64,000 bases of DNA from Escherichia coli (GTDB lineage: Bacteria > Pseudomonadota > Gammaproteobacteria > Enterobacterales > Enterobacteriaceae): NCBI RefSeq assembly GCF_013315695.1, contig NZ_CP054353.1. The stretch is one strand, 5' to 3'. A program made the position numbers and the translations under genes. Below, in pieces: positions 7,977 through 10,013 of this stretch (position 1 is its first letter; the number at the start of each line of letters is the position of its first letter). The notes under the pieces were generated by a model, which saw nothing but the letters and a program-made list of their open reading frames with translations, made no database searches and had not been told where the DNA came from.

Positions 7977-9023
7977 TCAGAAGCGGGTATCTACCGCAGA
8001 GGCGAGTTTTTCGACCAGGCGTTCGGTATCTTCCCAGCCCAGACACGGGTCGGTAATGGATTGACCGTAAGTGAGCGGCTGACCGCCGACGATTTTTTGC
8101 GTTCCTTCGCGCAGGAAACTTTCCGCCATAATTCCAGCAATCGCCGTAGAGCCATTGCGGATTTGCTGACAAATATCCTCACAAACTTCTAACTGGCGAC
8201 GGTGCTGCTTCTGGCAGTTACCGTGGCTGAAATCCACCACCAGATGTTCAGGTAAATCAAACTCGTGCAGCGTATCGCAGGCTGCGGCGATATCATCGGC
8301 ATGATAATTCGGTTTTTTGCCGCCACGCATAATAATGTGGCCATACGGGTTGCCGCTGGTCTGATAGATGGTCATCTGACCATTTTTGTCTGGCGAGAGG
8401 AACATATGGCTGGCGCGGGCTGCGCGGATAGCATCCACAGCAATCCGCGTGTTGCCATCGGTACCATTTTTAAAACCTACCGGACAGGAGAGTGCCGAAG
8501 CCATTTCACGGTGGATCTGACTTTCGGTAGTACGTGCGCCAATCGCGCCCCAACTGATTAAATCAGCAATAAACTGACCGGTCACCATATCGAGGAACTC
8601 AGTCGCGGTAGGGACGCCCAGCTCATTTACCTGTAAAAGTAATTTGCGCGCCAGCTCCAGACCGTGATTTACCCGATAGCTACCGTTTAAATCTGGATCG
8701 GAGATTAGTCCTTTCCAGCCGACAACAGTTCGTGGTTTTTCAAAATAGGTGCGCATTACGATTTCCAGCCGTGACTGGTACTGGTTGCGCAGCGACTGCA
8801 GACGGGTGGCGTACTCCATTGCAGCGGTGAGATCGTGGATCGAGCAGGGGCCAATAATGACCAACAGTCGCTTATCTTCACCATTGAGTATTTTTTCAAT
8901 TCTGCGGCGGGAGTCGGTGACATGGGTGGCGACGCCAGTCGTTACGGGATACCGTAGCGCGAGTTCGGCGGGCGTTACCAGGCTCTCAATACGCGCAGTA
9001 CGGAGTTCGTCAGTTCTGTTCAT
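7977..9023 (-). CDS. aroH: Trp-sensitive DAHP synthase
   Basis: 348 aa MNRTDELRTARIESLVTPAEL...; class I DAHP synthase. Confidence 0.95.
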   Translation of the reverse strand: MNRTDELRTARIESLVTPAELALRYPVTTGVATHVTDSRRRIEKILNGEDKRLLVIIGPCSIHDLTAAMEYATRLQSLRNQYQSRLEIVMRTYFEKPRTVVGWKGLISDPDLNGSYRVNHGLELARKLLLQVNELGVPTATEFLDMVTGQFIADLISWGAIGARTTESQIHREMASALSCPVGFKNGTDGNTRIAVDAIRAARASHMFLSPDKNGQMTIYQTSGNPYGHIIMRGGKKPNYHADDIAAACDTLHEFDLPEHLVVDFSHGNCQKQHRRQLEVCEDICQQIRNGSTAIAGIMAESFLREGTQKIVGGQPLTYGQSITDPCLGWEDTERLVEKLASAVDTRF

Positions 9024-9168
9024 TACAAGTCTCAGAAATTTGTTGCTTCTACGGCAGGACTACCGGGAAGTGATGCGCATCACGATAAACCAATCGCAGC
9101 TGATTTCAAGTGCGAGGTGTGTCACACCTCGCCGGGTGGTTAGCATGATAACAAAAAAGCAAGCCAAT

Positions 9169-9186
9169 GCACTAGTTTTCTAGTAC
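9169..9186 (-). promoter_or_regulatory. Putative TrpR operator (aroH)
   Basis: GCACTAGTTTTCTAGTAC, near-palindromic match to the Trp box core ACTAG; overlaps the ppsR stop codon. Confidence 0.5.
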
Positions 9187-10013
9187 ATTCGACGGCTAAG
9201 GCCCATGATATCGAGGATCTTGGTGGCAATCTCTTCTACCGAATAATTGGTACTGTTAATCCACGGGATCTGATTTTTACGGTACAACGCTTCCACTTCC
9301 GCGACTTCCATCCTGCACTGACGAAGCGAGGCATAGCGACTGTTCTCCCGACGTTCCTCGCGAATCGCCGCCAGACGTTCCGGGTCGATAGTCAGGCCGA
9401 ACAATTTGTGCTGAAGCGGTTTGAGCGACGCGGGTAGCACCAGATTATCCATATCGTCGGCAATAAAGGGGTAGTTTGCCGCGCGGATACCAAATTGCAT
9501 TGCCAGATACAGACTGGTGGGGGTTTTACCACAGCGAGAAACACCGAGCAGGATCACCTGAGCCTGGTCCAGATTGCGCAACGAAATGCCGTCGTCATGG
9601 GCAAGGGTGTAATCAATCGCCGCAATACGCGCATCATATTTATTGAGGTTATTAGGGTTCAGGCCATGGGTACGATGAGCAATCGGCGTGGGATCCAGTT
9701 TCATCTCTTGTTGTAGCGGGGCAACCAGCGCCTGAACGATATCCTGGCAAAAGCCCTCACTTTGCAAGATGATGGCGCGAATCTCCGGCAACACGATGGA
9801 GTAGAAGACCAGCGGGCGCACACCTGTCTGGTGATAAATTGCGTCAATCTGATCCTTCACTGCCCGTGCACGGCTCTCATTTTCGACAAACGGCAGCGTA
9901 ATGCTGCTGATAGTGACGGGAAATTGTGACATTACTGCGTGTCCTAATACCTCCGCAGTTATTGCCGTACCATCAGAAATATAAAAAACGTGGCGATCAA
10001 CAGCATTATCCAT
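9180..10013 (-). CDS. ppsR: PEP synthetase regulatory protein (kinase/pyrophosphorylase)
   Basis: 277 aa, P-loop GVSRCGKT, divergent from ppsA. Confidence 0.95.

Follow-up and report, generated by a model that had tools for sequence, protein, structure and literature searches.

A palindrome across the end of ppsR in Escherichia coli is very probably the known TrpR operator of aroH

The 3′ end of ppsR in Escherichia coli runs into a short palindromic sequence that continues into the spacer before aroH, and the question is whether this palindrome is a regulatory site of aroH, a structure of the ppsR transcript or an accident of the codons that it covers. We analyzed it within a window of 64,000 nucleotides of E. 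coli DNA (contig NZ_CP054353.1), where the plus strand at 9169..9186 reads GCACTAGTTTTCTAGTAC; the minus strand, which is the coding strand of both ppsR and aroH, is given with the other features of the locus in Table 1. A first-pass annotation, made from the sequence alone, had called this palindrome a near-perfect TrpR operator. The description is apt with respect to the symmetric Trp-box consensus GTACTAGTTAACTAGTAC: 15 of the 18 positions agree, and the site shows the dyad of 18–20 bp and the two CTAG cores with centres 8 bp apart that characterize a Trp box. As a description of a palindrome it is generous, since 12 of 18 positions are self-complementary. Dyad symmetry around the site reaches 9166..9189, and 18 positions of this 24-mer are self-complementary.

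Table 1. Features of the ppsR–aroH region; positions are those of the 64,000-nucleotide window.
Feature	Position	Strand	Details
ppsR CDS (PEP synthetase regulatory kinase/phosphorylase), 277 aa	10013..9180	-	ORF and RefSeq annotation of identical DNA
TrpR operator (Trp box) of aroH, very probable	9169..9186	-	GTACTAGAAAACTAGTGC; two CTAG cores 8 bp apart
ppsR stop codon TAG	9182..9180	-	inside the promoter-distal half-site; K-12 annotation puts the ppsR end at the same position
Extended -10 element of P1, predicted	9145..9153 (TATCAT = 9150..9145)	-	TGTTATCAT; read from the sequence; 18 nt downstream of the operator
Second CRP-like site	9111..9126	.	TGCGAGGTGTGTCACA; minus-strand reading TGTGACACACCTCGCA (9126..9111)
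Second sigma-70 promoter	9082..9109	-	TTGAAA-16-TATCGT; promoter scan; start 9074, mapped in K-12
CRP site	9069..9084	.	AGTGATGCGCATCACG; centred on the second promoter start; conserved across genera
aroH CDS (Trp-sensitive DAHP synthase), 348 aa	9023..7977	-	ORF and RefSeq annotation; regulated gene

The site is exceptional in its surroundings. No other sequence in the window comes within three mismatches of the consensus, and none of 100 dinucleotide-preserving shuffles contained a site at this threshold. In E. coli, trpR lies far from the aroH locus and was not expected in the window. Base composition predicts about 250 copies of the tetranucleotide CTAG in the 64 kb; there are 10, an under-representation of about 25-fold. 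Avoidance of CTAG is well known in E. coli, and it makes the paired cores of the operator conspicuous: the copies at 9172 and 9180, spaced by 8 bp, are the only close-set ones in the window, and both fall within the operator.

We compared the site with its counterparts in other E. coli genomes. A 401-bp stretch spanning the operator was found in 5422 of 5426 complete genomes, invariably annotated as ppsR and aroH, and it is 100% identical to many of them, including IAI39, CE10 and ST648. Alignment with K-12 MG1655 places GTACTAGAGAACTAGTGC at the equivalent position, with 17 of 18 bases shared. We take this K-12 sequence to be the aroH operator that Zurawski in 1981, Kumamoto in 1987 and Klig in 1988 reportedly mapped by footprinting. 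In this classical work, to which Jeeves in 1999 also belongs, the operator reportedly overlaps the -35 region of the aroH promoter that TrpR represses. The first-pass annotation had proposed comparison with the mapped operator, and the position of the site coincides with that of the reported K-12 operator. It is documented that aroH is negatively regulated by TrpR, and the TrpR–aroH interaction is reported to be retained in few Enterobacterales genomes, namely six from one taxonomic group (PMC5343134). The call made from the letters alone was correct and the palindrome is real; we regard the site with high confidence as the TrpR operator of aroH, an ordinary regulatory element that is already known, with TrpR binding presumed here from likeness to that operator.

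The operator shares its bases with the end of a coding sequence. PpsR terminates in ...SRRMY, and the promoter-distal half-site GTACTAG is made up of the G of the methionine codon ATG (9186), the tyrosine codon TAC (9185..9183) and the stop codon TAG. The ATG of aroH is 145 bp away from the operator's near edge and 154.5 bp away from its centre (9177.5). On the other side, ppsA (10345..12723) is transcribed divergently from ppsR. The reading-frame positions and the location of the TAG bear out the coordinates first given for the palindrome, its overlap with the ppsR stop and its spacing of about 145 bp to aroH.

Such an overlap invites the explanation that the palindrome arose by chance from the C-terminal codons of ppsR and has no function: the left half GTACTAG is fully set by Met-Tyr-stop, and it also occurs in species devoid of the right half (for example Rouxiella, L028; Erwinia, L038 and L079). 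Against this explanation stands the right half, which is non-coding. We sampled 80 AroH loci, one genome per species. Among the Enterobacteriaceae, 22 species have a box of the form GTACTAR-N4-CTAGTAC at the stop of ppsR; their ppsR ends in ATG TAC TAR (TGA once), followed by four bases and then by (A/G)CTAGTAC. The right half is conserved in all 22 while the flanking spacer diverges. Together with the empty shuffles, the extreme rarity of CTAG in the window and the documented regulation of aroH by TrpR (PMC5343134), this leaves a chance palindrome with a vanishingly small probability, and we consider it excluded by the shuffle statistics and the conserved non-coding half-site.

The box-bearing genera include Escherichia, Citrobacter, Enterobacter, Lelliottia, Pseudocitrobacter, Pluralibacter, Cedecea, Shimwellia, Phytobacter, Siccibacter and Mangrovibacter. 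The distal core of most genera reads CTAA instead of CTAG, so that one core position is weakened. The gene order extends further than the box: all sampled loci of Enterobacterales have ppsR directly upstream of aroH, and Yersinia, Serratia, Rahnella, Erwinia, Pantoea, Proteus, Photorhabdus and others retain this order with the right half-site absent. Upstream of aroH in Vibrio, Photobacterium, Salinivibrio and Aeromonas, ppsR is missing.

The end of ppsR differs between the species that carry the box and those that do not. The last codon is TAC in all 22 box-bearing species; in the 30 others it is TAC in 7, TAT in 6 and a phenylalanine codon (TTC or TTT) in 17. The stop codon is TAA in 17, TAG in 4 and TGA in 1 of the box-bearing species, as against TGA in 14, TAA in 10 and TAG in 6 of the others. 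These counts are not independent events, because the 22 box-bearing species form one clade, but they fit selection on the half-site, or a mutual constraint of the operator and the ppsR end. Two points here are mildly new, namely that the overlap of operator and ppsR stop is conserved family-wide and that it correlates with which codon and which stop are used. A further conjecture, which we consider doubtful, is that the operator fixes the tyrosine codon as TAC, disfavours TGA and favours the rare TAG in Escherichia, where it completes the full CTAG, and that bound TrpR might in addition gate read-through from ppsR into aroH, as no good terminator lies between the genes. If true, such gating would link the expression of an enzyme that consumes PEP to the operon regulating PEP synthesis.

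Several loci depart from the common arrangement. An Enterobacter species (ENT03, L014) is an exception to the overlap, with a complete box GAACTAGTAAGCTAGTAC located 25 nt past the ppsR stop. A soil metagenome-assembled genome (MAG; L032) has a spacer of 361 bp, with GTACTAACAAGCTAGTAC at the usual distance of 150 bp from aroH and with ppsR ending in TAT TAG, which suggests that an insertion separated the box from ppsR. In Hafnia (L022) and Edwardsiella (L048 and L050), box-like sequences (GTACTAGTAAAAAAGTAC and relatives) stand clear of the ppsR stop, about 125 bp upstream of aroH; these Hafniaceae sequences may be independent or relocated TrpR sites.

A palindrome at the end of a gene could also act mainly in the RNA, as the hairpin of an intrinsic terminator of ppsR rather than as a protein-binding site. 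A terminator scan did flag AATGTACTAGAAAACTAGTGCATT followed by GGCTTGCTTT; the palindrome folds as RNA at -14.5 kcal/mol (z = -2.7), and a run of six Ts follows it in E. coli. The details of the structure fit poorly with termination. G-C pairs make up 3 of the 10 pairs of the stem, which is rich in A and U, and the U-run begins at least 5 nt beyond the extended stem, so that a G+C-rich stem leading directly into a U-tract is not what the sequence offers. Across genera, the T-run is missing from most of the others that keep the box, and the bases conserved are those of the CTAG cores, not mere complementary pairs. In the Term-seq tables of Adams 2021 for K-12, neither the ppsR end nor the aroH leader has a 3′ end on the sense strand; the tables have no aroH entry, and the 3′ end in their sole entry for ppsR is antisense and internal to the gene, although a weak 3′ end could be masked by low expression of ppsR. 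We reject the intrinsic terminator, as very unlikely, on the composition of the stem, the displaced U-run, the unconserved T-run and the lack of a mapped 3′ end in these tables.

If the palindrome is instead the operator of aroH, a promoter should stand in a suitable relation to it. The extended -10 element found 18 nt past the operator would belong to a predicted promoter, here called P1, on which the operator would span about -48 to -31. The -35 region of P1 is poor, its best hexamers matching at 2 of 6 positions, which explains why a simple promoter scan missed this promoter. Transcription from P1 is predicted to start near 9138 and to yield a leader of about 115 nt. The predicted geometry agrees with the architecture reported in the classical work. 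It is also supported by the comparative sample, in which a TAnnnT hexamer follows the box by 17–18 nt in 16 of the 22 species and by 15–20 nt in 19 of them, a conserved spacing that speaks for an operator lying over the -35 region. Among published transcript maps, the operator-linked start is absent from Table S1 of Kim 2012 (PMC3415461), which covers K-12 in glucose M9; the start-site data of Mendoza-Vargas 2009 hold no entry for aroH, and the SMRT-Cappable-seq supplements hold none for aroH or ppsR.

Repression at this promoter can be pictured as follows. When tryptophan is plentiful, a Trp-loaded TrpR dimer would bind the two CTAG-centred half-sites, the promoter-distal one being supplied by the last codons of ppsR (atG TAC TAG). 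Positioned over the upstream part of a promoter with a weak -35 and an extended -10, bound TrpR would exclude RNA polymerase, and less of the Trp-sensitive DAHP synthase would be made.

TrpR bound at the same place could conceivably work mainly as a roadblock to transcription reading through from ppsR into aroH, and not by occluding a promoter. In favour of this, ppsR ends right at the operator, the interval up to aroH has no convincing terminator, and the order of the two genes is maintained throughout Enterobacterales. Against it stands the -10 element, whose conserved distance of 17–18 nt from the box is the geometry of promoter occlusion. TrpR is not known to act as a roadblock. A published record of joint transcription of ppsR and aroH was looked for and not found, the SMRT-Cappable-seq supplements having no entry for either gene. 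We hold a role mainly as a roadblock to be extremely improbable, and retain promoter occlusion at P1 as the preferred reading.

P1 is accompanied by a second promoter. From the 145 bp before aroH, the first-pass annotation had deduced a long leader; this was roughly right, but the predicted leader is about 115 nt and not 145, and it contains a second promoter whose start lies at -51 in Kim 2012. That study reports only one start for aroH, 51 nt before the ATG and supported by 414 reads (Table S1; PMC3415461; K-12 in glucose M9). The sequence upstream of the reported start ends in ...TTGAAATCAGCAGCGATTGGTTTATCGTGATGCGCA, which places the start at 9074 of the window, in agreement with the promoter scan. 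Across genera, the ppsR–aroH spacer is best conserved from TTGAAA to CACTTCCCGG, a block that exceeds the operator-linked promoter in this respect. The second promoter lies about 64 bp downstream of P1, with its start about 103 bp from the centre of the operator. By this position it probably escapes TrpR for the most part and supplies basal expression of aroH.

The start of the second promoter is itself covered by a symmetric element, a perfect 14-bp palindrome (GTGATGCGCATCAC) at 9070..9083 that lies within the CRP site. The two CRP-like sites of the leader are 42 bp apart and are the two predicted sites listed for the CRP ChIP-seq peak that ETEC H10407 shows at aroH (PMC4287617). The upstream one of the pair, at 9111..9126, shows no conservation outside Escherichia in the aligned loci. 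It falls within an inverted repeat of 10+1+10 positions at 9112..9132, whose RNA forms a hairpin of 9 bp in the P1 leader. We considered whether the leader begins with a conserved RNA hairpin and rejected this, since outside E. coli the structure is strong in Enterobacter/Lelliottia alone. An Rfam search of 8900..9300 at E ≤ 1 returned no RNA family. The leader before aroH is better described by two promoters and two CRP sites than as one long leader.

Closer to aroH, the 5′ UTR common to both transcripts contains a small hairpin, CGGUAGUCCUGCCG, at 9048..9061 on the minus strand. One of its pairs is G-U in the window and G-C in K-12. In other genera the bases have changed but a CGGnn...nnCCG stem is retained, and the conserved TTCTGAGA comes between it and the ATG.

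Within E. coli the operator is nearly invariant. The central base, A in the window and G in K-12, is the sole difference between the two 18-mers, and it is also the only position of the 18-mer that varies (A or G) among six aligned E. coli sequences. We traced the variant through the complete genomes by means of 30-mer haplotypes. The K-12 type with the central G is present in 4495 of 5426 genomes, the window type with the central A in 139, and a recombinant haplotype with the A allele in 4; three further sampled haplotypes have the central G too. The operator haplotype of one sampled locus (L002) was not found among the complete E. coli genomes. The window carries the minority allele, located between the two CTAG cores.

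TrpR has five operators, those of trpEDCBA, aroH, trpR, mtr and aroL, and the site in the window can be set beside three kinds of relatives. The K-12 aroH operator (GTACTAGAGAACTAGTGC) is alike in nearly every respect: it lies at the end of ppsR, 154.5 bp before the ATG, and shares the -10 element, the leader, the overlap with the ppsR stop and all but one of its 18 bases, differing in the central G. The identification has little discovery value, since the aroH operator has been among the textbook targets of TrpR from the 1980s on. The operator of trpEDCBA (near-symmetric GAACTAGTTAACTAGTAC) and the consensus GTACTAGTTAACTAGTAC likewise have two CTAG cores 8 bp apart with flanking GTAC or GTRC, but the centre is TTAA where the window has AAAA, and the proximal flank is GTAC where the window has GTGC. 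The two operators are also said, in work attributed to Klig in 1988, to differ in placement and effect, that of trp overlapping the -10 region with strong repression and that of aroH overlapping the -35 region with repression of a few fold. The boxes of other Enterobacteriaceae resemble the site in the window by their overlap with the Met-Tyr-stop end of ppsR and by a centre 110–170 bp before the aroH ATG, but differ from it by a stop that is mostly TAA, giving a distal CTAA, and by a perfect proximal CTAGTAC. Among the 22 box-bearing species, a TAG stop with the full distal CTAG is confined to Escherichia, Citrobacter youngae and one Enterobacteriaceae MAG (L020), and in Escherichia and C. 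youngae the proximal flank is degenerate (GTGC or GTAT). Throughout these relatives, the overlap of the operator with the ppsR stop provides a small example of bases shared by a coding sequence and a regulatory site.
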